A stretch of 53,486 bases of DNA from contig CAMVAA010000001.1 of the NCBI GenBank assembly GCA_947165345.1, positions 1-53,486 on the forward strand, in the 5' to 3' direction. The position numbers were made by a program, and so were the translations under genes. The notes below the pieces were generated by a model. It did not search any database and was not told where the DNA came from. It worked only from the letters and a program-made list of their open reading frames with translations. The DNA comes from an uncultured Bacteroidales bacterium. Lineage in GTDB: Bacteria; Bacteroidota; Bacteroidia; Bacteroidales; P3. Below are positions 1 to 12,229 of this stretch, in pieces. The stretch's first letter is position 1. Every line of letters starts with the position of its first letter.

Positions 1-56
1 ACGTCCAGCAGGCCCTCCTCAAAGCCTACGAGGAAGCCGCCAACGAGGAAGAGTAA
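1..56 (+). CDS. 3' end of an upstream CDS running off the window edge; product unknown
   Basis: Open frame from nt 3 to TAA at 54-56 (..VQQALLKAYEEAANEEE*). Only 17 codons are visible. The tail sequence recurs at 1178-1228 and 1769-1817. Confidence 0.4.
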   Translation, partial: VQQALLKAYEEAANEEE

Positions 57-64
57 TCAGGAGC

Positions 65-110
65 GCAGGCGTCCCGCCTGCCTCACCGGGTACGCAGGCG
101 TCCCGCCTGC
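65..110. repeat. Two copies of the 17-bp palindrome gcaggcgtcccgcctgc (65-81 and 94-110), immediately after the stop codon
   Basis: Read directly. The same palindrome pair recurs at 1237-1283. Confidence 0.8.
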
Positions 111-124
111 AAAGAAACCCTCAC

Positions 125-163
125 AAGCCGGAAACCCCGAGAGGGACTTCCGGCTTCTCTTTT
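125..163 (+). terminator. Putative intrinsic terminator hairpin
   Basis: aagccggaa (125-133) pairs with ttccggctt (148-156), followed by ctctttt. Confidence 0.5.
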
Positions 164-191
164 GGAAAACCAATTTTAATACCTACTACAA

Positions 192-902
192 ATGAAAAAA
201 ACACTATTGACACTGGCACTGGCCATTATAGCCATGGCCGCAGGGGCGCAAGCTCAAGACAACAACAACTGCAAATGGGTCGTCGGCGGGACGGGCCACT
301 TCAACCAAAGTACCGACAAGACGGGCGACGATGTAACCAACAAGGTGCGCGAATACCGCATTGAGCCTTTCGTTGGCTACAACATCAACGACCGCTGGCG
401 CGTAGGGCTCACCTACGGCTTCTCCCTCGACCACCGATACGAACTCAACGCCTCCGGCCAACTGTTCGACATCGGCACAAAACGCACCTACCGCGTCGGA
501 CCCTACGTCCACTACAACATTGTGAAATACAAACGCTGGATTCTCTTTGCCGAAGCCGAGGCCTTGCTCGGCTACTCACCCAGATACATGAACCCCGGGC
601 CGGGATCCACTCCTGGTGTGGGCGGCGCACCCGCCGTGCCCGGCTCCGGAGCCTACGACGCCAAACTGCAGACCTTCGACCTCACCATCAAGCCCGGAAT
701 CACCTACGAACTCGACAAACACGTGAACATCGACCTTAACCTCAATCTCCTCGGCTGGGTATACAGCAACCGCAAGGAGACACGTCTCGACAACAACGTA
801 GTCTACTCCAACAGCAGCAACGGCCTGCAGCTCGACCTGCTGGAGGGAAGCGTCGCCGAATACTGGAGCAACATCACCATCGGCGTAACCTTCAAATTCT
901 AA
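192..902 (+). CDS. Outer-membrane beta-barrel (porin-family) protein
   Basis: Signal peptide MKKTLLTLALAIIAMAAGAQA, alternating aromatic/Gly beta-strand pattern, and a C-terminal ..GVTFKF ending in Phe as in OMP barrels. Confidence 0.7.
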   Translation: MKKTLLTLALAIIAMAAGAQAQDNNNCKWVVGGTGHFNQSTDKTGDDVTNKVREYRIEPFVGYNINDRWRVGLTYGFSLDHRYELNASGQLFDIGTKRTYRVGPYVHYNIVKYKRWILFAEAEALLGYSPRYMNPGPGSTPGVGGAPAVPGSGAYDAKLQTFDLTIKPGITYELDKHVNIDLNLNLLGWVYSNRKETRLDNNVVYSNSSNGLQLDLLEGSVAEYWSNITIGVTFKF

Positions 903-1177
903 TACCGCACCGTCGGGGCCACCATCATTGAAAGCGAGCCTTGGCAAGGAACCATAGTATATTTGCAATTGAGGACTGACAAGGAAATCGACCCCCGAAA
1001 AGGTGGTGGCAAACCGTACCAATGCAGCGGAACAAGTGTCCTCACCGCCCTCCGTCGCCGCCACTTGGCAATGGCGTAAAAAGAAAAAAGCGGGTTTTGA
1101 TGATATAAACGCCTGTGATGGTTACAGGGATAGCCTTTTGCATACACTACACAAAAACAGTGCTCATAGGCGTACCT

Positions 1178-1286
1178 CTGCAGGCCCTCCTCAAAGCCTA
1201 CGAGGAAACCGCCAACGAGGAAGAGTAACAGGGACCGCAGGCGTCCCCGCCTGCCTCACCGGGACCGCAGGCGTCCCGCCTGCAAA
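1178..1286 (+). repeat. Second copy of the upstream gene tail plus the double palindrome (att-like repeat)
   Basis: ctgcaggccctcctcaaagcctacgaggaaaccgccaacgaggaagagtaa (TAA 1226-1228) followed by palindromes at 1237-1254 and 1267-1283. Near-identical to nt 6-110. No long ORF feeds into it. Confidence 0.85.
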
Positions 1287-1297
1287 CAATCCAAAGC

Positions 1298-1331
1298 AAA
1301 GGGAGCATCCAATCGGATGCTCCCTTTTTTC
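1298..1331. terminator. Hairpin terminator, probably bidirectional
   Basis: aaagggagcatcc / aatc / ggatgctcccttt followed by a T run. It lies 30 nt beyond the stop of the minus-strand ORF 1361-1651. Confidence 0.55.
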
Positions 1332-1360
1332 TGTGGGCTACCCCCCACCCGAAGGGATCA

Positions 1361-1651
1361 TCAGGCGGCCACGGTGTCCGCCACAGGCATTTCTCCAATC
1401 TCGACGGGGTCGTCGGCCGGTTGGTCGACCACCGGTTCCACCTGTTTAACGGAGAGCTTGACAGTGCCGAATCCGAAGGTCTGGAACAGCGCCGTCAGCC
1501 GTTTCAGCCCGCTCTCTTCGGCTTTCTTCAGGATGCCGTAGTCGAGGGCGTTCTGCTCCAGCTGCTGCTTGGCACACTCCTTGAGAGGCTTGGTCAGCTC
1601 GTGGCTCCAGGTGCCCTTCTCATACTCGGTGGTGAAGTCCGACGGGTTCAT
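1361..1651 (-). CDS. Hypothetical 96-aa protein
   Basis: ATG-initiated ORF with host-like GC and plausible composition, and a hairpin just downstream. A TAgaTTTG box lies on the minus strand inside the 86-bp repeat upstream. I recognise no family. Confidence 0.45.
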   Translation of the reverse strand: MNPSDFTTEYEKGTWSHELTKPLKECAKQQLEQNALDYGILKKAEESGLKRLTALFQTFGFGTVKLSVKQVEPVVDQPADDPVEIGEMPVADTVAA

Positions 1652-1666
1652 GATGATGTCGAATAC

Positions 1667-1752
1667 CTCGACGGCAAGAAAATCTTAATTTAGTGCAGAA
1701 TTTTACAATGGACAAATCTATATTTGGTGCAAAATGAGTCATAGAATTATTT
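1667..1752. repeat. 86-bp direct repeat, copy A (left boundary of the AT-rich island)
   Basis: ctcgacggcaagaaaatcttaatttagtgcagaattttacaatggacaaatctatatttggtgcaaaat..atagaattattt aligns with 6287-6372 at an offset of 4620 bp, with about 7 mismatches. It contains TAtaTTTG at 1719-1726. Confidence 0.9.
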
Positions 1753-1768
1753 CATACTTGGTGTAAAA

Positions 1769-1831
1769 GCAGGACCTCCTCAAGGCCGAAGAGGAAGCCG
1801 CCGCCGAGGAAGAGTAACCGCGTGCTCGCGG
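1769..1831 (+). repeat. Third, diverged copy of the gene tail (..KQDLLKAEEEAAAEEE*) plus a short hairpin
   Basis: gcaggacctcctcaaggccgaagaggaagccgccgccgaggaagagtaa, with TAA at 1815-1817. An in-frame stop at 1764 leaves only 16 codons. Hairpin ccgcgtgctcgcgg at 1818-1831. Confidence 0.7.
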
Positions 1832-1872
1832 AGAGCAATAAAGCTACGCAGGCAATATTGTCCGCAAATACA

Positions 1873-1906
1873 AGAGAAGCCTCATCATCGTGGGGCTTCT
1901 CTATTT
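1873..1906 (+). terminator. Putative terminator hairpin
   Basis: agagaagcc (1873-1881) pairs with ggcttctct (1894-1902), followed by atttg. Confidence 0.4.
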
Positions 1907-2009
1907 GTTATACACAATAAACTGGTGCCGTTTTCGTTATAAAAGCGAATACATTTCGTGCAATTCAATGGAAAATTCCAAATGATTAATATGTAGAAAA
2001 ACTGACAAA

Positions 2010-3215
2010 ATGATAGAACTCAAAATCCCTTCAGAGGCAATTGATAGTGTTTTTTCTTCATTTAGTATATATGGGGAGAGACATGAGATACCGATTGAGT
2101 GGTGGCCTAATGGTTTGCAATCTTCCGAGAGGTATTTGGAAACAGACTTTCTAGTTATTAAATCAGTCCATAAAGATGAGGAAATGTTCAAAATAGAGGA
2201 CAAATTAGTGAGGTCTCCTTTTGATGGATATGTTCTCATTGATAATGATAGTTCTTTATACAATTACAATAAAAAAAATACAAGAGTATACACAAAAGAT
2301 GAGGCGGAAAAAATAGTAATAGGCATTGTTTGTGAAAAAATTGAAGAAGCAATAAAGTGTTTGGTAGGTCCAATAGATTGCACTCTTACTGTTGATCCAT
2401 TTACACAAAAACATCAAATCAACGGAACATTTAAAGGGTATTTGTGGAAGTGGTTTAGACATAATTTCCCTACACCAATGTATATGTATGAAGATAGTTT
2501 TATGTGGGTTGAGATAGCTTACGACTTATTTCTGTGTTTTGAATTTAAAGAAGACATGGGAATTATTTCTTTTGATACTGCAGGATATCGGAATAACAAG
2601 CGGCATATTCATAAAGGAGACACCATTTCATTACTATTAAACAACGGGGGGATAATTGACTACACATTGAATAAGAAAGCGCTGGAAAAACACCGGTATT
2701 GCTTTACGTTATACCAAGATGATATTGATGCACTTTTGAACAATCGAATTGTATCATGCCGAATAACATTTGCTGATGAGGAAAGACCGCCTTTGGATTT
2801 GGATTTTGAGAACACTGTTATGGGCGATTATGCACATGATGCTATTCGCTATTATTTGCAAACATATCTTGACGAAGTACACAGGCTTGTCCCATCCTAT
2901 AAATTTCCTGTGCGTAAAGTCAAAAGAACACGCACTGAGTTTGGATTTAACGGGTGTTATGTGTACCTAATGCAAGACACCACCAATGGATATTATAAGA
3001 TAGGCATTTCGAACACACCAGAATACAGGGAAAAGACATTGCAAAGTGAGAAACCCACAATTGAATTGTTAGCTTCAACGAAATATCCCACCCGTAAAAT
3101 AGCTGAAGCAATAGAATCTGCTTTGCACACTGCCTATAGTCAACAACGTCTCCGTGGAGAATGGTTCAAGTTGGATGATGTAGATGTTGCTGCAATAATT
3201 GAGACATTGAAATAA
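2010..3215 (+). CDS. Protein with an unknown ~310-aa N-terminal region and a C-terminal T5orf172/MUG113 (GIY-YIG-like) domain
   Basis: 401-aa ORF in the AT-rich island. The last ~87 aa (nt 2952-3212), GCYVYLMQDTTNGYYKIGISNTPEYREKTL...AIESALHTAY..LRGEWFKL, follow the T5orf172 pattern (G.vY.l...g..KIG.t....R...l....E..lH......gEWF) as I remember it. Confidence 0.7.
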   Translation: MIELKIPSEAIDSVFSSFSIYGERHEIPIEWWPNGLQSSERYLETDFLVIKSVHKDEEMFKIEDKLVRSPFDGYVLIDNDSSLYNYNKKNTRVYTKDEAEKIVIGIVCEKIEEAIKCLVGPIDCTLTVDPFTQKHQINGTFKGYLWKWFRHNFPTPMYMYEDSFMWVEIAYDLFLCFEFKEDMGIISFDTAGYRNNKRHIHKGDTISLLLNNGGIIDYTLNKKALEKHRYCFTLYQDDIDALLNNRIVSCRITFADEERPPLDLDFENTVMGDYAHDAIRYYLQTYLDEVHRLVPSYKFPVRKVKRTRTEFGFNGCYVYLMQDTTNGYYKIGISNTPEYREKTLQSEKPTIELLASTKYPTRKIAEAIESALHTAYSQQRLRGEWFKLDDVDVAAIIETLK

Positions 3216-3229
3216 ATATTGTACTATAC

Positions 3230-4549
3230 ATGAAAAAGTTTACATTGTTTTTCTCTTGGCAATCTGATGATAATGAAACCAAGAAGATAATAACAAATGC
3301 AATACAAAAGGCTGTACATAATATCAAGATTTATCATCGGTATTCCATTAATGTAGAAGAATCAACCAGCAACATTTCGGGCTCTCCACAGATTGTTGAA
3401 ACCATTCTTGACAAGATTGATTCATGTGATATATTTCTTGCAGATGTCACACCGGTATGTTCTTATCAAAAACCATTCGGGAATGGCTTATCAACTATAA
3501 AACAAGTGCCAAATCCAAACGTATTAATGGAACTGGGCTATGCCATGAGCGCAGTTGGGATGCATTATACTATTTGTGTTGCCCATCAAGGGAAATGGAA
3601 TTCCAACGACCTTCCTTTTGATATAAATCATAATAGAATATATCAGTTTACATCATCAAATTGTGATTTATCGGACAGAATTATTGAGGTAATAAAATAC
3701 ATTGAGAAGCATGGGAAACACAGACACAAGGCGACCCTGTATTTGATACATAGATACAACTTACTTTGGGGGAAGATAAAAGATAAGTTCTCAAAAAGTA
3801 ACAAAACTCCTAATGAATATGCCTTTGCAGACCCCATTATCTATTTCAACGAACGCATGGGTAAAGCATTTCATGGAAAGAGAGGTCTTGTTACATATAC
3901 CAAAGCAAGAGATATACGGCGATGTCTCGATAACTTATTCTCTTCTCCTTTAAAATTAAAAAAAATAGAAAGTGAGTATGGAAGTTCTTTTTCAATATTA
4001 TGGTGGTACCGAGGCTCTCTCTCTTCTAATATCGAAAAATATAGACATCTTGGAGGACGGCACTTCCTTATTCAAACCATGGAACTGAACATACGGAAAA
4101 TAGTTGCTTATGTAGACCCTTCTGGTAGATATTATGGACAATATATATATGTGGAGACATACCCTGATAATCCGACAGGTCTTTATCCTTCCCATACTAA
4201 GAGTCACATTGAAGAATGGAGAAAAGAGCATGGTTACTATTCAGAAGAATATGGTGTATTTAGGATACTACATCTATTTTGGAAGAAGGTAACGAGCAAC
4301 GAATATGATGATGGACATACAAGATTTCTAGGGAAATTAATTTCTCCGGCACGTAAAGACCAAGAATTACGCGAACGCTTCCTTACTCCATTTAATTTTA
4401 TTATCACATCACCACATTCATCAATAAACTGTCGTCAGTTTGCAGAGTCAGATGATTACTTTAACAGCCTTCTCAAAACGGAAATGACGATTGAACAGTT
4501 TAATGACTATCTAAAAAGCTTCCCCAAACCAGAGGATAGATATTTCTGA
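3230..4549 (+). CDS. Protein with an N-terminal TIR-like / nucleoside 2-deoxyribosyltransferase-like domain and an unknown ~290-aa C-terminal region
   Basis: 439-aa ORF starting 14 nt after the previous stop. The first ~140 aa show strand FTLFFSWQSD, strand+Asp CDIFLADVT, then NPNVLMELGYA (Glu101, nt 3530-3532) and LPFDI. This is the Rossmann-like TIR/NDT motif layout. The rest has no motif I recognise. Confidence 0.6.
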   Translation: MKKFTLFFSWQSDDNETKKIITNAIQKAVHNIKIYHRYSINVEESTSNISGSPQIVETILDKIDSCDIFLADVTPVCSYQKPFGNGLSTIKQVPNPNVLMELGYAMSAVGMHYTICVAHQGKWNSNDLPFDINHNRIYQFTSSNCDLSDRIIEVIKYIEKHGKHRHKATLYLIHRYNLLWGKIKDKFSKSNKTPNEYAFADPIIYFNERMGKAFHGKRGLVTYTKARDIRRCLDNLFSSPLKLKKIESEYGSSFSILWWYRGSLSSNIEKYRHLGGRHFLIQTMELNIRKIVAYVDPSGRYYGQYIYVETYPDNPTGLYPSHTKSHIEEWRKEHGYYSEEYGVFRILHLFWKKVTSNEYDDGHTRFLGKLISPARKDQELRERFLTPFNFIITSPHSSINCRQFAESDDYFNSLLKTEMTIEQFNDYLKSFPKPEDRYF

Positions 4550-4604
4550 CATTTTTATCGCAAACATACATACAAGATTGGAATAATAGAGTAACCTAAA
4601 AACC

Positions 4605-5648
4605 ATGTTAATAGAAATCTCACATATCAACGAGTCCGAGTATAACGAAATTCTGCAACAGGCTGTTGCAGTTTTTGACAGCGCACGTGTAACAGCGGCC
4701 AAAAGTTTTAGTACAATATCAAATATGGCATACTGGAGCATGGGGAAACTGCTTAACGAGCGGAAACTGGAAGGTAAATACGGTGACGGTGTGGTAAATA
4801 GGCTTTCCGTCGACCTTAAACAGCACTTCCCCAATATGGGTACATCGCCTCGTAACCTATGGGACATGAAACGTTTCTATGAACGTTTTTGCCGCAGTAA
4901 CGAAAAACTGCGACAGGCTGTCGCAGTTTTGCCTTGGGGACACATACTCAGGCTGATGAGTAAGTTTGACAAGGACGATGATGCAATTCTATACTATGCC
5001 ACCGAGACCGTAGCCAAAGGATGGAACCGCGACCTTCTATTGAACGCCATAAAGATGCAAATGCACCTGACCCATCAGACGACAGCCATTAGCAACAACT
5101 TCGCCACTGCCTTGCCCGCTTCTCAAGCGATGTATGCCAATGAAGTGTTCCGCAGCGGATATAATCTCGGCTTTCTTGGAGTCACAGAGCCTGTTGCCGA
5201 ATTGGAATTGGAGCGTCGCTTGGTGGAGAAAGTAAAACTGTTTCTACTCGAATTGGGAAAAGGGTTTACATTCATTGGCGACCAGTATATCATCGAGTAC
5301 AACGGCAAGGAAAGTCGCATAGACATGCTTTTCTACCATCGTGGGCTGCGCTGCCTGGTTGCCTTTGAACTGAAGATTGGCAAGTTTATGCCGGAATATG
5401 CAGGCAAGATGAATTACTACCTGTCTGTTCTCGACCGAACGGAACGTCAAGAAGGAGAGAACCCGTCCATCGGCATTATCCTATGTGCCGAAAAAGACAA
5501 CGTGGATGTAGAACTTGCTCTCGAAGGTGTGACAAAACCCATCGGGGTTGCCGACTATCACCTTTTAATTCCAAAAGCAGAACTGCAAAAGGTAGTAACA
5601 GACGAAATTGCCTTGTACGAGAAAGAACGTATAACAGAAGGAGATTGA
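4605..5648 (+). CDS. DUF1016 (YhcG-family) PD-(D/E)xK nuclease domain protein
   Basis: The N-terminus ..AVAVFDSARVTAAKSFSTISNMAYWSMGKLLNE..YGDGVVNRLSVDLKQHFPNMGTSPRNLWDMKRFYERF is typical of YhcG/DUF1016. The C-terminal core is IDMLFYH..LRCLVAFELKIGKF (D..ExK). Confidence 0.8.
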   Translation: MLIEISHINESEYNEILQQAVAVFDSARVTAAKSFSTISNMAYWSMGKLLNERKLEGKYGDGVVNRLSVDLKQHFPNMGTSPRNLWDMKRFYERFCRSNEKLRQAVAVLPWGHILRLMSKFDKDDDAILYYATETVAKGWNRDLLLNAIKMQMHLTHQTTAISNNFATALPASQAMYANEVFRSGYNLGFLGVTEPVAELELERRLVEKVKLFLLELGKGFTFIGDQYIIEYNGKESRIDMLFYHRGLRCLVAFELKIGKFMPEYAGKMNYYLSVLDRTERQEGENPSIGIILCAEKDNVDVELALEGVTKPIGVADYHLLIPKAELQKVVTDEIALYEKERITEGD

Positions 5649-5887
5649 CAAGCCGACATCGTCGGCGGACCGCCGAAGGATCACCGAAGGGTCATGAGAC
5701 TAAGGGTTGAGAATGAACGTCTTGCATTGCGCAAGAGTATAATTCCGCTTTTTGTTGGTTATCAATAGATTGCAGCCGTTTCAAAGAAGGCGCAAAGAAC
5801 CCACATAGAGGGCACAAAGAATCCTTGTATGGTTATGCAATAAACTGGAGGATTATACCGTTGTGGTAACCGACTAAATAAGCAACT

Positions 5888-6019
5888 ATGAAATTCTTGA
5901 AATGGCTGGGGTTTGACCCCGAAAAGCATAGCGTCAGGACGGAGATTCTCGCCGGGCTGCTCTTGTCGTCCTCTGTCAGACATATTTGTCACCCACAGAC
6001 TCAAGTCTGGAGTCCGTGA
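5888..6019 (+). pseudogene. Possible 5' fragment of an NCS2/AzgA-type purine permease gene
   Basis: MKFLKWLGFDPEKHSVRTEILAGL resembles the conserved N-terminus (..T.VRTEi.AGlTTF..) of AzgA-family permeases. Similarity is then lost and a stop follows after 43 codons. Confidence 0.25.
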
Positions 6020-6286
6020 GATAATTGAAATGCCAAATACAGATAGAAGAATGCCTCGGGATTGGACTTCTTTAATTTGTTGAGTTTTGTGTACTCATAG
6101 TCGGTAAATAGCCAATCTGTCATCCTCTCCCAATGCCGAATGTGTGCATTTTGCTTTATTTGACAGTGCAAAGATACACATATTTTGGGGAACAACAATA
6201 AGTTCATTCTCAAAATAAAAAATGGACGTAGGCATGATTTAAGAATAAATGCGAATAGCTATTAAAAAAAGTTTGTTTTCTTACGA

Positions 6287-6372
6287 CTCGACAGCAAGAA
6301 AATCTTAATTTAGTGCAGAATTTCACAATGGACAAATCTATATTTGGTGCAAAATATATTATAGAATTATTT
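6287..6372. repeat. 86-bp direct repeat, copy B (right boundary of the AT-rich island)
   Basis: Aligns with 1667-1752. It contains TAtaTTTG at 6339-6346. Confidence 0.9.
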
Positions 6373-6508
6373 TGCGCCCCTGCTTTTCATTGATTTTCCA
6401 CAGGTTACCCGACAGCAACCCGATGAATCACGATTCCCAAAGCCCCTCGACTTCGGGTCGTGGCAAATATTTTTTTCATGTCGTAGGGGCGGAATTGGAT
6501 TTTTTGTG

Positions 6509-6516
6509 TACTTTTG
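6509..6516 (+). promoter_or_regulatory. Candidate Bacteroidota -7 box (TActTTTG) upstream of the LRR gene
   Basis: tacttttg lies 33 nt upstream of the ATG at 6549. There is no clean -33 TTTG at the expected spacing. Confidence 0.35.
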
Positions 6517-6548
6517 CAGCGAAAAATAATAACAAAATTGTTAAACAC

Positions 6549-7595
6549 ATGAAGAAAACATTATTCTTTTTGGCAGCTGCGACATTCGCCGCTGCGGGAA
6601 TGGCACAAGCGCCCACTTTCGAGGTGACGACACAGAACGGAGCGGTGTTGCTCATGTCGGTCGTCGACGGGGCAGCCACCGTCACCGGGGGCAAGCTGAC
6701 CACCGGGACAGAGTGCAACCTGGGCGACCTGGTGATACCCGCCACGGTGGAACACGACGGAAACACAGTGCCCGTGACGACCATCGGAGCGGCAGCATTC
6801 AACCACGACACGATGACGTCGGTAGTGATACCCAGTTCGGTGACGAGCATCAAGATGTCCGCCTTCCGCCAGGTGGAGGGACTGCAGAGCGTGACCATCC
6901 CCAACTCGGTGACGGAGTTGGGCCGGATGGCCTTCCTGCAGTGCGCCAGCCTGACGAGCGTGACCCTCTCCGAGGCGCTGACGGAGATTCCAATGAACGC
7001 CTTCTACCAGTGCAACCTGTCGTCGGTGACAATACCGAACAGCGTCACCACCATCAGTGACTTTGCCTTCGACGCCAACGGCAACATCACCAACATCACC
7101 ATCGGCTCCGGCGTCGACTCTATCGGAGAGCAGGCCTTCTTCGACAACAGCAACCTCGACATGGTGACCGTGCTCTGCACCGAGGTGCCGCGCACCGGCG
7201 CCCGCGCCTTCACCGGCAGCGAGAACACTCTGACGTCGGTAGTGGTGCCGTGCGGCACGGCCGACGCCTACCGCGCCAACGAGGAATGGGGCAAGTTTGC
7301 CCGCATCCGCGAGAACTGCGGCGGCGACAACCCAGGCGAGGAACCCGGCGAAGAGCCCGGCGGCAACGAAGGCATCGCCACGACCGACATGTCCGCCTTC
7401 AACGCCTATGCCGCAGAGGGCCGCATCGTCGTGGACTGCCCTGTCGCCACAAACGTGCAGGTATTCGCCACCGACGGCCGCAGCGTGGCCACACTGACCG
7501 CCAACGGAAAGAAAGCTATCGAGGTGCCCGCCGCGGGCGTGTATATCGTGAGCTTCGACGGCCGCAAAGCCACCAAGACCGTCGTGGTCAAATAA
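6549..7595 (+). CDS. BspA-type leucine-rich-repeat surface protein with a T9SS C-terminal sorting domain
   Basis: Start set at MKKTLFFLAAATFAAAGMAQA (signal peptide). The track ORF begins at 6372, but that extension looks non-coding. Repeated ..SVTIPNSVT.Ig..AF..C..L.. units indicate LRR_5. The C-terminus ..GRIVVDCPVATNVQVFATDGRSVATL..AGVYIVSFDGRKATKTVVVK is CTD-like. Confidence 0.8.
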   Translation: MKKTLFFLAAATFAAAGMAQAPTFEVTTQNGAVLLMSVVDGAATVTGGKLTTGTECNLGDLVIPATVEHDGNTVPVTTIGAAAFNHDTMTSVVIPSSVTSIKMSAFRQVEGLQSVTIPNSVTELGRMAFLQCASLTSVTLSEALTEIPMNAFYQCNLSSVTIPNSVTTISDFAFDANGNITNITIGSGVDSIGEQAFFDNSNLDMVTVLCTEVPRTGARAFTGSENTLTSVVVPCGTADAYRANEEWGKFARIRENCGGDNPGEEPGEEPGGNEGIATTDMSAFNAYAAEGRIVVDCPVATNVQVFATDGRSVATLTANGKKAIEVPAAGVYIVSFDGRKATKTVVVK

Positions 7596-7618
7596 CAGAG
7601 GCATCCCGCCTCCAACAA

Positions 7619-7654
7619 AAAAGAGGACGTTCCCTTGCCGGAACGTCCTCTTTT
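7619..7654. terminator. Bidirectional terminator between convergent genes
   Basis: aaaagaggacgttcc / cttgcc / ggaacgtcctctttt, flanked by A and T runs. Confidence 0.65.
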
Positions 7655-7676
7655 ATTGTTGCGCTATTGCGCCGCG

Positions 7677-9194
7677 CTATTTCACCATGACACGGTTCAC
7701 GGTACCACCCGCGGCCAGGGTGACTCCGACCGTATAGACGCCCTTCTCGAGGCGGCTGACGTCGATGGTGGCGGTGGTGTTTCCGTCGACATCAGTGGCG
7801 CTCACCTCGCGGCCGGCCATGTCGACTATGACAACACTCTGCATGGGCGCCGCCGCGCTGATGGTGAGCTTGTCGGCGACGGGGTTGGGATGGAGGGCCA
7901 CAAGGCCATGCTCCACGACGTCGATACCCTCGTTGCCGCCGGGGTTGCTGTTGCCGGGCGTCAGGACATAGTGCAGCGTGTCATAGGTGAGCAGCTCGGG
8001 CGTCTCGGGACACAGCGCCATGCTGATATAGACGTCGAGGGTCTTGGGGGTGGTGAAGTCAGCATCGTCGACAGGGATGATACTGATGCTGTGCTGGTTG
8101 TTGTCGATGGTGAAATGGTCGCCCTCGTTGAGGACAGTGCCGTCGTCGGCAAAGCAGACGTAGTCGAAGCCGTTGACAGCGTCGCCGCCGAAGCGGGCAT
8201 ACACGGTGGCATTGTCATATTCGGTGCCGGCAAGGCTGATAGGTATCACCTTTTCGGTACCCTGGGGTATGTTCTCGGTCTCGTTCTGCCAGATGCCTAT
8301 CTGGCCGCTGGGGGTGCCAAAGCTGTTGCCCTCGATAAACACACCGCTGTCGAGGTGGTTGGAGCCGATGTTGCAGACGGAGATGTGCATGTGATACACC
8401 TGGCAGGGGATGACGCCGCCCTGGGCGACAAGCTTGCGCGTGAGGCCGTCATACTGCACGCCAGGTTTGGCATAGGTGGAGTCGTAGTCGTTGTCGCAGA
8501 AGTACTGGCTGTAGTCGAAGCTGTAGCCGAAGCCGGACGAGTAGATGGTGTCTGGCGGAATGCCGTTGTTGACAGTGCTGGTCGACACGGGGATGCCATT
8601 GGGATGCTCGTCGTCCTCCGAGCCGGGTATCATGGCGATATTGCGGGTCACCACCTGGCCGGTAGCGGGGTCGGGGCCCGTGAGCAGGAAGACAAAGACG
8701 TCGTGGTACAAGCTGCCGACAAACTCGTTGTACTCTTCGCTGCCGAAGGAGTAGGAGAACATAACGTTGGTGGCGAGGCACACGAAGTCGAAGTCGATGG
8801 TGCCGCAGGTGACGGCATTGTCGGCAAGGCCCTGGTTGTTGATTTCCGGATCGACATAGCGGTCGGCCTCCGGCAGGGGTATGTTATAGTAGGGGAAGGT
8901 GTTGGGCCCCTTGGCGGCGTCGATATGCCCTGTGGTGACCAGGATGCCTTTGCTCATCTCGATGCAAGGGAAGCCGGTGTTGACAAACGTGCCTATCTGC
9001 GGATAGCGCGACGGGATGATGCCGGACTGCCCGTTGAAGGTCACGTTGTAGACATAGACTCCCTCGCCAAGGAAATTGGTGCGGATGAAATTCGTTATGT
9101 CCTGCCCCACGGCAGAGGTTATCTGGACATTCTGCTGAGCCGCCACACCGAGAGTGGCAAGGGCGCAGAGCACGAGAGTAAAGACTCTTTTCAT
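7677..9194 (-). CDS. Choice-of-anchor-L domain protein with a T9SS sorting domain
   Basis: Signal peptide MKRVFTLVLCALATLGVAAQ. The motif FSYSFGSEEYNEFVGSLYHDVFVFLLTG..NIAMIPGS..VNNG resembles the choice-of-anchor L signature. The C-terminus LHPNPVADKLTISA....GVYTVGVTLAAGGTVNRVMVK is a T9SS CTD. Confidence 0.75.
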   Translation of the reverse strand: MKRVFTLVLCALATLGVAAQQNVQITSAVGQDITNFIRTNFLGEGVYVYNVTFNGQSGIIPSRYPQIGTFVNTGFPCIEMSKGILVTTGHIDAAKGPNTFPYYNIPLPEADRYVDPEINNQGLADNAVTCGTIDFDFVCLATNVMFSYSFGSEEYNEFVGSLYHDVFVFLLTGPDPATGQVVTRNIAMIPGSEDDEHPNGIPVSTSTVNNGIPPDTIYSSGFGYSFDYSQYFCDNDYDSTYAKPGVQYDGLTRKLVAQGGVIPCQVYHMHISVCNIGSNHLDSGVFIEGNSFGTPSGQIGIWQNETENIPQGTEKVIPISLAGTEYDNATVYARFGGDAVNGFDYVCFADDGTVLNEGDHFTIDNNQHSISIIPVDDADFTTPKTLDVYISMALCPETPELLTYDTLHYVLTPGNSNPGGNEGIDVVEHGLVALHPNPVADKLTISAAAPMQSVVIVDMAGREVSATDVDGNTTATIDVSRLEKGVYTVGVTLAAGGTVNRVMVK

Positions 9195-9228
9195 TGCTTG
9201 TATTGTTCGTTTTATAGTTGACCTGTCT

Positions 9229-10752
9229 CTATTTCACCAAGGCCCTGTGCAGGACCATGCCCGACACCGTGGTTGTCCGCACGGTATACACCCCGTTGCC
9301 GAGGTGGCTGATGTCGAGCGTTGCCGTGTGGGACTCTCCTTCCACAGCCACATTGCACACCTCGCGGCCGCCCGCGTCGAGGATGGTGACCTTAGACAGA
9401 ATCTCGCCGCAGGAGACCGTAAGCACGTCGGTCGCAGGGTTGGGATACAGCGCCACCGCCGCCGGCGAGGCCGTCTCGATGCCGTCGTGGCCAGGACCAG
9501 GCCCAGGGGTGCCCTCGGCCAGCGAGAAGCGCATGGTGTCGTGGGTCAGCAGCTGGGGATAGTCGGTGCAGAAGGCCATATCGAACAGTATATCCAACGA
9601 CTTGGGGGTGGTGAGGTCTGACTCGAGGGCCATGACGGTGATGGTGTGGGTGCTTTGGTCGAGGGTGATGCGGTCGCCGTTGTTGAGGGGCGTGCCGTCG
9701 TCGTAGAGGCAGAGGAAGTCGATGCCGTTGACGGCCTGGCCGCCGAAACGGAGCGTGGCCTCGGCAGTGGCGTAGTCGGTACCGCTGAGCGAGATGGGTA
9801 TCACCTTGGGCTGGTTTTTGGTCACCGTCTCAGTGCCGCCCTGCACGATACCAATGTCCGAGACAGGCGTGCCAAAGCTGTGCCCTTCGAGGAAAACACC
9901 GCTGTCGTAGCTCTCGTCGCCGACATTGCAGACGGAGATGTGCATGTGGTACGACTCGCAGGGCACCACCGCCGCCGAAGCGGACATCTTCTTGGTGTAT
10001 CCGTCGTACTGCACACCCGGGATGGGGGTGCCGGTGTAGTCGTTGTCGTAGAAATACTGGCTGTACGTCAGGTAGCAGCCCTCCGGAATCTCGCCGGTGA
10101 TGTTTTCCGACCCGAGGCTGCCGTTGTTGACAGTGTTGATGGCCACGGGGATGCCATTGGGGTGCTCGTCGCTTTCCGTGCCGGGTATCATGGCTATGTT
10201 GCGGGTGACGACCTCGCCGGTGACAGGGTCCGGACCCGTCAGGAAAAAGACAAAGACATCATTGAATTGCGTGCCCACATATTCGTTGTACTCCTCGCTG
10301 CCGAAACAGTAGGTGAACGAAATGCTCGACGAGAGGCACACGAAGTCGAAGTCGAGGGTGGCGCACCCGTTGGCGTTGCTCGATATACCCTGCGAACTCA
10401 TCTCGGGGTCTACGTATCTGTCCTGCTCCATTATGGGCAGGCTTTTGCCAAAGCCGTTGTTGGGACCGGCAGCGACAGTGACGGCACCGGTGGTGAGCAC
10501 GAGACCCGTGGTCATGTCGAGACCCATGTATCCGTTGGACTGGAAAACGCCAATCTGGGGATGGCGGCTGTCCACACTGCCCGAATTGCCGTTGAAGCGC
10601 GCATTGTAGACATACACGCCGTCACCAAGCAGGTTGGTGGCAATCAGGTTGCCGATGTTCTGCCCAACGGCAGAGCTGACGTTGATATTCTGAGCCTCCA
10701 CGGCGGCGACCGTCGACAGAACGGTCAGAAAGAGTATAGTTTTTTTCAACAT
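9229..10752 (-). CDS. Choice-of-anchor-L domain protein with a T9SS sorting domain (tandem paralog)
   Basis: 507 aa, collinear with 7677-9194 (FTYCFGSEEYNEYVGTQFNDVFVFFLTG..). C-terminus LYPNPATDVLTVSC..GVYTVRTTTVSGMVLHRALVK. Confidence 0.75.
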   Translation of the reverse strand: MLKKTILFLTVLSTVAAVEAQNINVSSAVGQNIGNLIATNLLGDGVYVYNARFNGNSGSVDSRHPQIGVFQSNGYMGLDMTTGLVLTTGAVTVAAGPNNGFGKSLPIMEQDRYVDPEMSSQGISSNANGCATLDFDFVCLSSSISFTYCFGSEEYNEYVGTQFNDVFVFFLTGPDPVTGEVVTRNIAMIPGTESDEHPNGIPVAINTVNNGSLGSENITGEIPEGCYLTYSQYFYDNDYTGTPIPGVQYDGYTKKMSASAAVVPCESYHMHISVCNVGDESYDSGVFLEGHSFGTPVSDIGIVQGGTETVTKNQPKVIPISLSGTDYATAEATLRFGGQAVNGIDFLCLYDDGTPLNNGDRITLDQSTHTITVMALESDLTTPKSLDILFDMAFCTDYPQLLTHDTMRFSLAEGTPGPGPGHDGIETASPAAVALYPNPATDVLTVSCGEILSKVTILDAGGREVCNVAVEGESHTATLDISHLGNGVYTVRTTTVSGMVLHRALVK

Positions 10753-10844
10753 AGCGGTACTGTTATTTCAGACTGCAAATATACAACTATTTTTGAATAC
10801 GACGGCTTTTTTTTACCCGCCCGGCACAAGCGCACGCTCCCAAG

Positions 10845-11507
10845 TCAGTCGGTGAAGGCGTAGCGGACTATGTTGGAGCCCATACGCAGCGCCTTCTGGC
10901 GCGTGGCCTGGCTATCGCGGTGCACGTCGGGGTCTTCCCAGCCGTCGCCGAGGTCGCACTCCCAGGTGAAGAAGCACACGAGGCGCCCCTCATAGATGAG
11001 GCCGAAGCCCTTGGGCGGCAGGTTGTCGTGCTCGTGGATCTTGGGCAGACCGTTGGGAAAGTCGTATTTCTGGTGGTAGATGGGGTGCGAGAAGGGCAGC
11101 TCGACGAAGTCCAGCTCGGGGAAGACCTTCTTCATCTGCGGCTCTATGAACTCGCGCAGTCCATAGTTGTCGTCAATATGCAGGAATCCGCCGCCTATAA
11201 GATACTTGCGAAGGTTCTGCGCCTCGCGGTCGCTGAAGACCACGTTGCCGTGACCGGTCATGTGGACGAAGGGGTAGTTGAAGAGCTCGCTGCTGCCCAC
11301 GTCGACGGTTGCAGGGCTGCCGAGCCCCATCTGCTGGTCTTCGTTGCAGAAGGCGGTGAGGTTGGTGAGCGACGTGGGGTTGGCGTACCAGTCGCCACCG
11401 CCGCCATAGCGCAACAAGGCCAACCTCGGCTGGGCCGCCAAGGGGTGGAAGCTGAAGGCTGAAAGCTGAAAGCCGAAAGCCAAAAGTATGAACAGTATCT
11501 TTTTCAT
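10845..11507 (-). CDS. DUF4159 domain protein (secreted)
   Basis: Signal peptide, then ..LLRYGGGGDWYANPTSL.NL..F......PFVHMTGHGNVVFSD.EA.NLRKYL..GGFLHIDDNYG, typical of DUF4159. The start overlaps the rsmE stop by 4 nt. Confidence 0.7.
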   Translation of the reverse strand: MKKILFILLAFGFQLSAFSFHPLAAQPRLALLRYGGGGDWYANPTSLTNLTAFCNEDQQMGLGSPATVDVGSSELFNYPFVHMTGHGNVVFSDREAQNLRKYLIGGGFLHIDDNYGLREFIEPQMKKVFPELDFVELPFSHPIYHQKYDFPNGLPKIHEHDNLPPKGFGLIYEGRLVCFFTWECDLGDGWEDPDVHRDSQATRQKALRMGSNIVRYAFTD

Positions 11508-12229
11508 CTGTCGTTGATTAGGTTGAATGCCGCAGTGGCGTAGAGGGCCGCCGTCTCGGTGCGCAGACGGCTGTGGCCGAGGCTGACGGGCTGGAAGCCG
11601 CAGTCGAGGGCAAGCGCTATCTCCTCGGCCGAGAAGTCACCCTCGGGTCCTATGAGCACAACGGCGTCGCGCCCGGCCACCATGGCGGACGCCAAGGGTG
11701 TGCGGGGCTGGTCGGCCTCACAGTGGGCTATGAACTTCTGCGTGTCCGGCGCGAACAGCTTTGCGCTCTGCCGAAGCCACTCTTTCAGCTCGACCGGAGG
11801 GTTCACGACCGGCAACACCGTGTGCAGACTCTGTTTCATGGCGCTGACGGCCAGCCGCTCCAGCCGGTCGGTCTTGAGGAAGGTGCGCTCCGAGTGGTCG
11901 CAGTTTAGCAGCGTTATCTCTCCCACCCCTATCTCCACGGCCTTCTCCACGAGCCACTCCATACGGGCCGGGTTCTTGGTGGGAGCCACGGACAGGTGGA
12001 GCGCGGCCCGTGGCGCGGGGCTCGTGCTATGGGCTTCCGTGGGCTCCACGACACAGGCTTTGGGGTCGGCGACGACTATACGGCAGAGGTACATGTTGCC
12101 CCGTCCGTCCGTAACGTTGATATCGTCACCCTCCCGCAGCCTCATCACGCGCACCGCATGGCGGCTCTCCTCCTCGTCGAGGGTACACAGGCCGTTTGGC
12201 GTTATATCCAGGCTATAAAACAGTTGCAT
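11504..12229 (-). CDS. rsmE: 16S rRNA (uracil1498-N3)-methyltransferase
   Basis: MQLFY...EESRHAVRVMRLREGD.I.VTDGRG....C.I......, and C-terminal ..VLIGPEGDFS.EE...A...GF.PVSLG..RLRTETAA. This is the RsmE pattern. Confidence 0.85.
   Translation of the reverse strand: MQLFYSLDITPNGLCTLDEEESRHAVRVMRLREGDDINVTDGRGNMYLCRIVVADPKACVVEPTEAHSTSPAPRAALHLSVAPTKNPARMEWLVEKAVEIGVGEITLLNCDHSERTFLKTDRLERLAVSAMKQSLHTVLPVVNPPVELKEWLRQSAKLFAPDTQKFIAHCEADQPRTPLASAMVAGRDAVVLIGPEGDFSAEEIALALDCGFQPVSLGHSRLRTETAALYATAAFNLINDR

Follow-up and report, generated by a model that had tools for sequence, protein, structure and literature searches.

Studied members of one class of TIR domains, those of TIR-STING, TIR-SAVED and PycTIR, are effectors that deplete nicotinamide adenine dinucleotide (NAD+). 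The activity of TIR-STING is switched on by filament assembly upon ligand binding, and the NAD+ pocket of the best-matching example, SfSTING (Cap12), comprises F6, W33, F37 and L47 together with S10, R78 and N80, with E84 as the catalytic residue and D110 supplied by the opposite TIR domain (PMC9402430). A second set of precedents is provided by Swarozyc, Evangelion and Vulcan, single-gene systems described in 2026 preprints, in each of which a DUF4062/NIR NADase is joined to a C-terminal auxiliary sensor. For each of them, abortive infection accompanied by NAD+ depletion was reported, with direct demonstration in Swarozyc and Vulcan; the former is activated by the phage portal, the latter by lambdap79, and in both, mutation of the catalytic Glu abolishes defence. 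Here we describe a gene of comparable layout, located at positions 3230 to 4549 (+ strand) of a 53,486-nucleotide stretch, the window, which constitutes the analysed part of contig CAMVAA010000001.1 (assembly GCA_947165345.1) from an uncultured Bacteroidales bacterium. Its 439-amino-acid product consists of an N-terminal TIR head, a helical linker and an orphan C-terminal domain, referred to below as the tail.

We consider it fairly probable that this protein is a single-protein abortive-infection (anti-phage) system, with the tail as the sensor of infection and the TIR head as the NAD+-depleting part, because the head falls in an NAD+-depleting class, the tail is constant whilst the heads joined to it are mostly of killing types, no partner gene is conserved, and single-gene precedents exist. 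The TIR head represents expected biology; the new part is the reusable tail, found in at least 761 clusters and with at least eight kinds of head.

Among the described systems, the head is most alike to those of Cap12/TIR-STING (SfSTING, PDB entry 7un8) and PycTIR (8jsj), which share its TIR subclass, provided the best Pfam, Foldseek and PDB-profile matches, and align with it at the catalytic Glu, at the Asn four residues before this and at the trans-acting Asp. It differs from them in possessing its own F[FY]SWQS[DE] signature and in scoring just under the Pfam threshold. As in the TIR effectors of CBASS and Pycsar, the TIR domain is fused to a separate, putatively sensing domain that also occurs in counterparts headed by transmembrane helices; the tail itself, however, is not a STING, SAVED or cyclic nucleotide (cNMP)-binding domain, and has no detectable relative. 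Membership of CBASS or Pycsar was rejected on the absence of a cyclase (CD-NTase or PycC) from the low-GC islet containing the gene and from the annotated neighbourhoods of its relatives, and of any known ligand domain.

Swarozyc, Evangelion and Vulcan, and also SpbK, resemble the window protein in being one polypeptide with an N-terminal TIR-like, NADase-type head bearing a Glu, a helical connector and a C-terminal domain. They too are found in defence islands or mobile elements, and a DUF4062 head is present on 7 of 120 tail-containing proteins. The window head is nonetheless of the PF10137 type, with no DUF4062 match at E ≤ 0.01 in the window protein or in 33 aligned relatives. Compared by published description alone, the auxiliary domains comprise a winged helix in Swarozyc, a short domain in Eva01 and HEAT repeats in Vulcan, whereas the window tail is a beta-rich domain of approximately 236 amino acids. 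Homology to these systems was therefore rejected for the head class, and the tail, by that description, probably differs as well; the window protein may work in the manner of Swarozyc, Evangelion and Vulcan without belonging to them. ThsB of the Thoeris system is likewise a TIR protein, whose appended domain is believed to detect infection, and is likewise found in defence islands, but it always has an adjacent gene for a signal-reading effector, whilst the window family has no conserved partner. Identity with ThsB was rejected on this basis, as the T5orf172 gene that precedes the window gene is limited to one clade and pairs with other cargo elsewhere.

The gene and its product

The open reading frame (ORF) at 3230..4549 runs from an ATG to a stop codon, as established from the ORF list and its translation. 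Database searches retrieved 157 proteins matching the product, approximately 95 of these over its full length at 34-99% identity. All were unnamed or annotated as 'hypothetical', and those with a named source originated from metagenome-assembled genomes of Prevotella/Bacteroidales. An independent metagenome contig (L137) repeats a 9.5-kb stretch harbouring the TIR gene at 98.4% identity. Owing to the 157 matches and this second occurrence, 3230-4549 is taken as a genuine gene and no chance reading frame.

An AlphaFold2 model (mean pLDDT 84.5), generated on the family alignment, comprised an alpha/beta domain built of beta-alpha repeats (residues 1-165; 3230..3724), a low-confidence helix (residues 171-188) and a beta-rich part from approximately residue 200. 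The helix is the only one of the variable linker (residues 166-199; 3725..3826), where pLDDT was ~59-63. Mean pairwise identity within the TIR-plus-tail family was 57% in the head and 48% in the tail, falling to 23% in the linker between them. An earlier reading of the DNA made without database searches, hereafter the sequence-only reading, had treated everything beyond the head as one unknown domain of 290 amino acids; its unknown character stood, but the single block divides into a linker of ~35 residues and a domain of ~236 residues (200-435). A motif check found no GxxxxGK[ST] P-loop in the 439-residue protein. Conservation was assessed in two alignments, A1 consisting of 34 full-length relatives, and A3 of 32 distant N-domains drawn from many phyla and from viral contigs or phages.

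A TIR head of the Cap12/PycTIR class

The sequence-only reading had proposed a TIR-like or nucleoside deoxyribosyltransferase (NDT)-like N-terminal domain with a candidate catalytic Glu. Each motif that it quoted was located where it had been placed, namely FTLFFSWQSD at residues 4-13, CDIFLADVT at 66-74 and NPNVLMELGYA at 95-105, with Glu101 encoded by the GAA codon at 3530-3532. The two best Pfam matches were to families that it had named beforehand: CAP12-PCTIR_TIR (PF10137; E = 2.4e-4, 21.5 bits against a gathering score of 24.7) and, in second place, Nuc_deoxyrib_tr (PF05014; E = 0.018, 15.6 bits against a cut-off of 28.8). All 34 aligned relatives matched PF10137 at E ≤ 0.01 (best 2.9e-6), in comparison to only four for PF05014, and several relatives at 66-75% identity already carry a precomputed PF10137 label. 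PADLOC returned weak 'TIR effector' matches alone for the window protein.

Structural superposition, also suggested by the sequence-only reading, gave a concordant outcome. In a Foldseek search of the PDB, the first nine matches were TIR-STING chains, including 9lmq and 7un8 (E 3e-5 to 6e-4, probability 1.0), followed by DNPH1 (TM-score normalised to the target, 0.64), NDT enzymes (0.53-0.59) and the SARM1 TIR domain (0.47-0.57). A profile constructed from 32 diverse N-domains and searched against PDB sequences had as its top matches 7un8 (Cap12/SfSTING), 8jsj (PycTIR) and 6qai (an NDT enzyme); each was marginal (E 0.03-0.05), and all three placed PNxNVxxELG on the catalytic-Glu motif.

Three conserved elements mark the head, and define what is here termed the 'F[FY]SWQS[DE] ... 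PNxNVxxELGYA ... LPFD' subfamily. The first is strand betaA with its loop, FTLFFSWQSD (3239..3268, + strand), in which F7, S9, W10 and Q11 are invariant, and which by position would be the equivalent of F6...S10 in the NAD+ pocket of SfSTING. The active-site motif NPNVLMELGYA (3512..3544, + strand) follows; a residue-by-residue alignment places it on PRDNVVFEFG of 7un8 and on the matching stretches of PycTIR and the NDT enzyme. The motif contains Glu101, lack of conservation of which had been named as grounds for abandoning the proposal; this residue is invariant in both A1 and A3, and its aligned counterpart in SfSTING, PycTIR and an NDT enzyme is the catalytic Glu, as had been predicted. The third element is the LPFDINH loop (3611..3631, + strand), in which P129, F130 and D131 (3620-3622) are invariant. 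Across the 32 N-domains the invariant positions additional to Glu101 were F7, S9, W10, Q11, G51, P53, K62, D72, P94, N95, N97, V98, G103, P129, F130 and D131. The marginal-E alignments map N95 to R78, N97 to N80, E101 to E84 and D131 to D110 of SfSTING (the deposited chain being offset by eight residues), and also align D131 with the D of LPSD in PycTIR.

Based on the Pfam, Foldseek and PDB-profile matches and on the mapping of N95, N97, E101 and D131, the head is assigned by sequence comparison to the Cap12/PycTIR class of TIR domains, with a Glu at the catalytic position and a putative equivalent of the Asp that in TIR-STING ties activity to TIR-TIR packing. Membership of the NDT family was rejected, given a score below gathering and the residues preceding the Glu, which read P-N-P-N-V-L-M-E-L-G in the window protein against P-D-C-G-T-A-F-E-L-G in the NDT enzyme, that is, the TIR pattern N-x-N-V-x-x-E and not D-x-G-T-x-x-E-x-G. 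The proposal of a TIR or NDT-like head hence held in general, with the head nearer to Cap12/PycTIR-type TIRs than to NDT enzymes.

Heads with the F[FY]SWQS[DE] signature constitute a large subfamily that is always N-terminal, confirmed at no fewer than 564 loci in one-genome-per-species bacterial and archaeal genomes and at 26 in viral (IMG/VR) contigs. The proteins range from 300 to 843 amino acids in total, and their C-termini are mutually unrelated and mostly unannotated. In two loci (L032 and L104) such a head precedes a NACHT/nSTAND3 NTPase, which is the effector position of STAND defence proteins; the window protein shares this modular logic with Avs and bacterial NLR-like STAND proteins, but differs from them in having neither an NTPase module nor a repeat-type sensor. 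Heads of this type span loci L023 to L128, with examples in Streptococcus oralis (L085) and Dehalococcoidia (L036). They are poorly captured by current profiles, many members falling under the PF10137 threshold.

A widespread C-terminal domain with interchangeable heads

The tail (residues 200-435; 3827..4534, + strand) is mostly beta strand in the AlphaFold2 model, and when modelled alone (residues 196-439, 16-sequence alignment) it reached a pLDDT of 90.9 and a pTM of 0.89. Two stretches that the sequence-only reading had singled out, SILWWYRGSLSS (residues 255-266) and YIYVETYPDNPTG (residues 305-317), are present, and its statement that this part lacks a P-loop, nuclease or helix-turn-helix signature agrees with the absence of any known signature in all libraries searched. 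Against Pfam, the window tail had no match at E ≤ 1, and the other 15 members of the alignment gave chance-level matches confined to single members (best E 0.028). NCBIfam yielded nothing beyond a chance DnaD match (E = 0.33), PADLOC (searched with the full-length protein) and PHROGs had no meaningful match to the tail, and neither did PDB sequences searched with two tail profiles. Foldseek searches with the tail were not significant against BFVD (best E = 0.049), and against the PDB gave a best E of 0.059 with all TM-scores below 0.2; the weak matches included a mild excess of cupin and cNMP-binding-like beta barrels, a hint at most. By tblastn, phage genomes contained no match and plasmids three, the annotations of which read TIR protein or hypothetical.

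When 1.84 billion cluster representatives were scanned exhaustively with HMMER, the tail was detected in 761 proteins at E ≤ 1e-3, including 421 at E ≤ 1e-30. The tail is therefore 'orphan', as the sequence-only reading had it, in belonging to no known family, but it is not a lone domain, being instead a widespread unnamed family. It is C-terminal in all 150 listed proteins, behind heads of ~70-430 amino acids, whilst a few short entries, probably fragments, comprise little beyond the tail. Pfam searches of 120 tail proteins identified heads matching TIR_2 (17, with SEFIR overlapping in 6), PF10137 (11), DUF4062 (7), Pkinase (5), GGDEF (3), caspase (3), CHAT (2), EAD11 (2) and a nucleotidyltransferase (NTase)-conflict domain (1), and these architectures were borne out in individual examples. 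Amongst 183 tail proteins, a hydrophobicity scan found one to three transmembrane segments in the heads of 61, and in 23 the head was shorter than 40 amino acids; one tail protein has an HNH-like head.

Near-invariant positions over the 120 proteins were F206, R209, F214, P215, G216, P240, P256, W258, R261, E285, Y307, E309, E339, E340, D360, D361, G368, R381, R383, N389 and N400. These ~20 positions, mostly charged or aromatic, hold across proteins that are 20-45% identical. These data show the tail to be a genuine domain that has no known relatives. Sensor-plus-effector defence proteins usually pair a constant tail with killing heads that can be exchanged. The overall architecture is familiar, whereas the putative sensor domain appears to be undescribed and is without a detectable structural relative. 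Keyword searches of the literature, which are weak evidence, found no description of it.

Two loci carrying the tail were noted for the arrangement of their genes. In L021 (2341-6963), a Lamassu-like operon (LmuA, E = 8.7e-43; MC3; LmuB, E = 2.2e-104) is followed, after 18 nt, by the start of a transmembrane-headed tail protein. In L020 (5424-6972), two adjacent ORFs share an NTase-conflict domain between them, and the second runs on into the tail, probably representing a frameshifted NTase-plus-tail fusion; this split gene is flanked by a TIR_2-nSTAND1-WD40 giant on one side and a NACHT giant on the other.

Search for a partner gene

To survey neighbouring genes, loci with the tail domain were fetched and their target proteins grouped at 90% identity into 43 lineages. 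No upstream or downstream protein family was present in more than 4 of the 43. In the window, the gene immediately upstream (2010..3215, + strand) encodes a 401-amino-acid protein with a C-terminal T5orf172/MUG113 (GIY-YIG-like) domain identified by Pfam, and is separated from the TIR gene by 14 nt. A T5orf172 neighbour was found only with relatives of at least 66% identity and was absent from every relative of 48% identity or less. The T5orf172 family itself comprises at least 1051 clusters. At a SecG/LptE hotspot, the site of one TIR relative, a 44%-identical T5orf172 gene instead precedes an AAA_15/21 ATPase gene and a 273-amino-acid gene with the 14-nt gap retained, and the DNA similarity at this hotspot stops at the T5orf172 stop codon. 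Because it is limited to one clade, belongs to a far larger family and is followed by different cargo at the same 14-nt gap, T5orf172 is probably an independent anchor gene situated before exchangeable cargo, and no dedicated partner. Its candidacy as an obligate partner was accordingly rejected, being confined to the closest clade, with a family at least tenfold larger that precedes other cargo at the hotspot.

The last ~65 nt of the T5orf172 genes are nearly identical in DNA even though the proteins are only 42-77% identical (window 2010-3215; L001 5606-7986; L005 1082-2230; L132 4001-5125), and the window copy looks like a recombinant of two tandem paralogues present in L001. Two further candidates were also dismissed. 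An unannotated gene of 437 amino acids near one relative (L010:2788-4101), considered as a possible paralogue, had no similarity, and the ~110-amino-acid ORFs upstream of several relatives, considered as a hidden conserved partner, were mutually unrelated.

Proposed mechanism and rival explanations

In the single-protein mechanism that we favour, the tail of ~236 residues would bind an infection cue, and this binding would drive assembly through the helical linker. Packing of TIR domains against each other would then insert Asp131 of one subunit into the active site of its neighbour, as in TIR-STING. The protein would remain inactive until oligomerised, because the active site is probably complete only with two packed TIR domains. 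The betaA loop with Asn95 and Asn97 would line the NAD+ pocket, and Glu101 would catalyse NAD+ hydrolysis, resulting in arrest of the infected cell. We infer here not only the NADase chemistry and the oligomerisation-dependent activation but also that the tail acts as a sensor, what kind of cue it responds to, and that the protein has a defence phenotype. Of the two roles that the sequence-only reading had offered, an immune effector or a signal generator, the effector fits the evidence better.

Several points weigh against this mechanism. The PF10137 score of the window protein is under the Pfam gathering score (21.5 bits against 24.7), and the PDB profile alignments from which the residue mapping derives are individually marginal (E ~0.03-0.05). 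In the closest clade (at least 66% identity) T5orf172 is always upstream at the 14-nt gap, so that co-transcription and some functional coupling may exist. Some of the heads found on the tail make signals and do not kill (GGDEF, NTase-conflict, and TIR itself in Thoeris), whilst the EAD11 fusions are equally compatible with the tail being a recruited effector. Lastly, the charged or aromatic near-invariant residues of the tail (R209, R261, E285, E309, E339, E340, D360, D361, R381 and R383) would also suit an enzyme active site.

Of the rival explanations, one retains the effector role of the protein and differs from the above in the trigger alone. A putative charged pocket of the tail would bind a nucleotide-like molecule and not a phage protein, this molecule being either a second messenger produced by an enzyme whose gene lies elsewhere or an infection by-product, an idea suggested by the ~20 near-invariant tail positions, which would be unusual in a surface tracking fast-evolving phage proteins, and by a tail nearly as conserved as the head (48% against 57%). 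The ligand sensors of Pycsar and CBASS carry this very pair of transmembrane and PF10137-TIR heads; Metis, which senses m6dAMP, provides a precedent for orphan transmembrane or NAD-depleting effectors able to sense a free nucleotide, and the weak Foldseek matches of the tail are enriched in cupin and cNMP-binding-like barrels. Those matches are nevertheless far from significance, no cyclase or MisB-like phosphatase recurs beside family members, and the caspase, kinase and EAD heads are more typical of direct sensors of phage proteins, as in NLR-like systems; we regard this explanation as unlikely. A Thoeris-like signal generator, in which the tail senses, the TIR domain makes a cyclic ADP-ribose-type signal and a separate effector such as T5orf172 or YhcG is activated, is improbable. 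The same-strand T5orf172 gene 14 nt upstream in the window and in all relatives of at least 66% identity, the generation of signals in Thoeris by TIR proteins with an extra sensing domain, and the occurrence of GGDEF and NTase heads on the same tail are compatible with it, yet T5orf172 is missing at 48% identity or below, no neighbour family is recurrent beyond 4 of 43 lineages, and T5orf172, in its far larger family, serves other cargo with an unchanged gap at the hotspot. Moreover, the PF10137-type TIRs characterised so far deplete NAD+, and some of the heads on the same tail are terminal killers (transmembrane helices, caspase and the DUF4062 NADase).

The head could alternatively be a nucleoside or nucleotide N-glycosidase of the NDT/DNPH1/MilB type, acting on (deoxy)nucleotides and not on NAD+. 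NDT and DNPH1 enzymes share its fold superfamily (TM-scores normalised to the target of 0.53-0.64) and the position of the Glu, with ELGYA matching the NDT motif FELGYA, and Nuc_deoxyrib_tr was the second Pfam match, also matched by 4 of 34 relatives. PF10137, however, outscored NDT in 34 of 34 relatives, and the NDT score was well below threshold. The N-P-N-V-x-x-E preceding and including the Glu resembles R-D-N-V-x-x-E of SfSTING and not D-x-G-T-x-x-E of NDT, the Asp of LPFD corresponds to a feature found specifically in TIR-STING and PycTIR, TIR NADases are the typical fusion partners of STAND NTPases and defence sensors, and the context is one of defence and not of nucleotide salvage, all of which makes such an activity quite improbable. 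It seems highly improbable that the tail is itself the toxic or enzymatic module, with the variable heads as additional or regulatory parts. Its conserved acidic and basic residues do resemble a catalytic site, the EAD11 fusion fits an 'adaptor plus effector' layout, and some proteins consist of little beyond the tail (the 23 of 183 with heads under 40 amino acids); many of these short proteins are, however, fragments from short contigs, most family members would have to be two-effector fusions, which is unusual, and Foldseek detected no likeness of the tail to any enzyme fold in the PDB or BFVD.

The low-GC islet and its neighbouring genes

The TIR gene lies in a three-gene islet (T5orf172, the TIR protein and YhcG) at ~1800-6400, with a GC content of 33-40% in comparison to 55-65% in the flanks. 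The downstream gene (4605..5648, + strand) encodes a YhcG/DUF1016 protein of the PD-(D/E)xK nuclease family (Pfam E = 3.9e-54), which is also a match to the PADLOC candidate system PDC-S02 (E = 1.2e-111), a candidate single-gene system, and to phrog_22762; it travels with the TIR gene in the cassette of loci L001-L004. The islet is bracketed exactly by an 86-nt direct repeat, the left copy (1667..1752, + strand) and right copy (6287..6372, + strand) of which are 93% identical, and the independent contig L137 has the two copies as well. The repeat, which may have arisen by duplication of a promoter region or of a site of insertion or recombination, holds a TAnnTTTG-like element (TATATTTG). Within positions 1-12000 no tRNA was found, and the ORF list for this region contained no integrase-like ORF.

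A promoter scan of the islet found sigma-70-like sites at chance level and no Bacteroidetes-type TTTG...TAnnTTTG pattern. Between the left repeat and the T5orf172 start is a strong terminator-like hairpin (1873-1902, + strand) of 13 pairs followed by a T-rich tail, and terminator-like sites in 1600-6500 numbered 12 against ~3.4 expected from shuffles. Just outside the islet, in the high-GC flank, two tandem paralogues of ~505 amino acids (7677-9194 and 9229-10752, both on the - strand) resemble each other along their whole length, have predicted signal peptides and look like secreted or surface proteins.

In other assemblies the T5orf172/TIR/YhcG cassette, with a 99% identical TIR protein, occupies a quite different chromosomal site, where it adjoins a Bro-N gene, an HKD plus Snf2 helicase and a type IIG restriction-modification enzyme. 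The neighbours of other relatives include Gabija (GajA, E = 1.5e-189; GajB, E = 8e-170), an EcoRI-type restriction-modification system with PDC-S41, Cas9-Cas1-Cas2, CHAT/trypsin-TPR genes and capsule loci, and the gene surroundings of relatives with alternative heads vary likewise. The low-GC islet, the defence neighbours and the second chromosomal site demonstrate both a defence-gene setting and horizontal mobility for this gene.

Implications

Defence proteins that combine one TIR-like NADase with one sensor are an established class, within which the distinguishing point is what each senses. With the tail, the known repertoire of bacterial immunity would gain a further type of sensor, and once the domain is named and its trigger found, many genes now listed as 'hypothetical' would receive an annotation, in gut and rumen Bacteroidales as well as in other bacteria. 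One sensor with many heads would also offer a clean system in which to study how sensing is coupled to TIR activation. A broader and decidedly tentative proposal is that the tail, as an undescribed fold, serves as a general-purpose infection sensor that binds one conserved small molecule (a Metis-like nucleotide danger signal) and is wired to at least eight kinds of output. These outputs would comprise three TIR-like NADase classes, membrane pores, caspase and CHAT proteases, kinases, GGDEF and NTase signal makers, and EAD adaptors. If true, the tail would mark out a family of bacterial immune receptors that is both new and broadly distributed.

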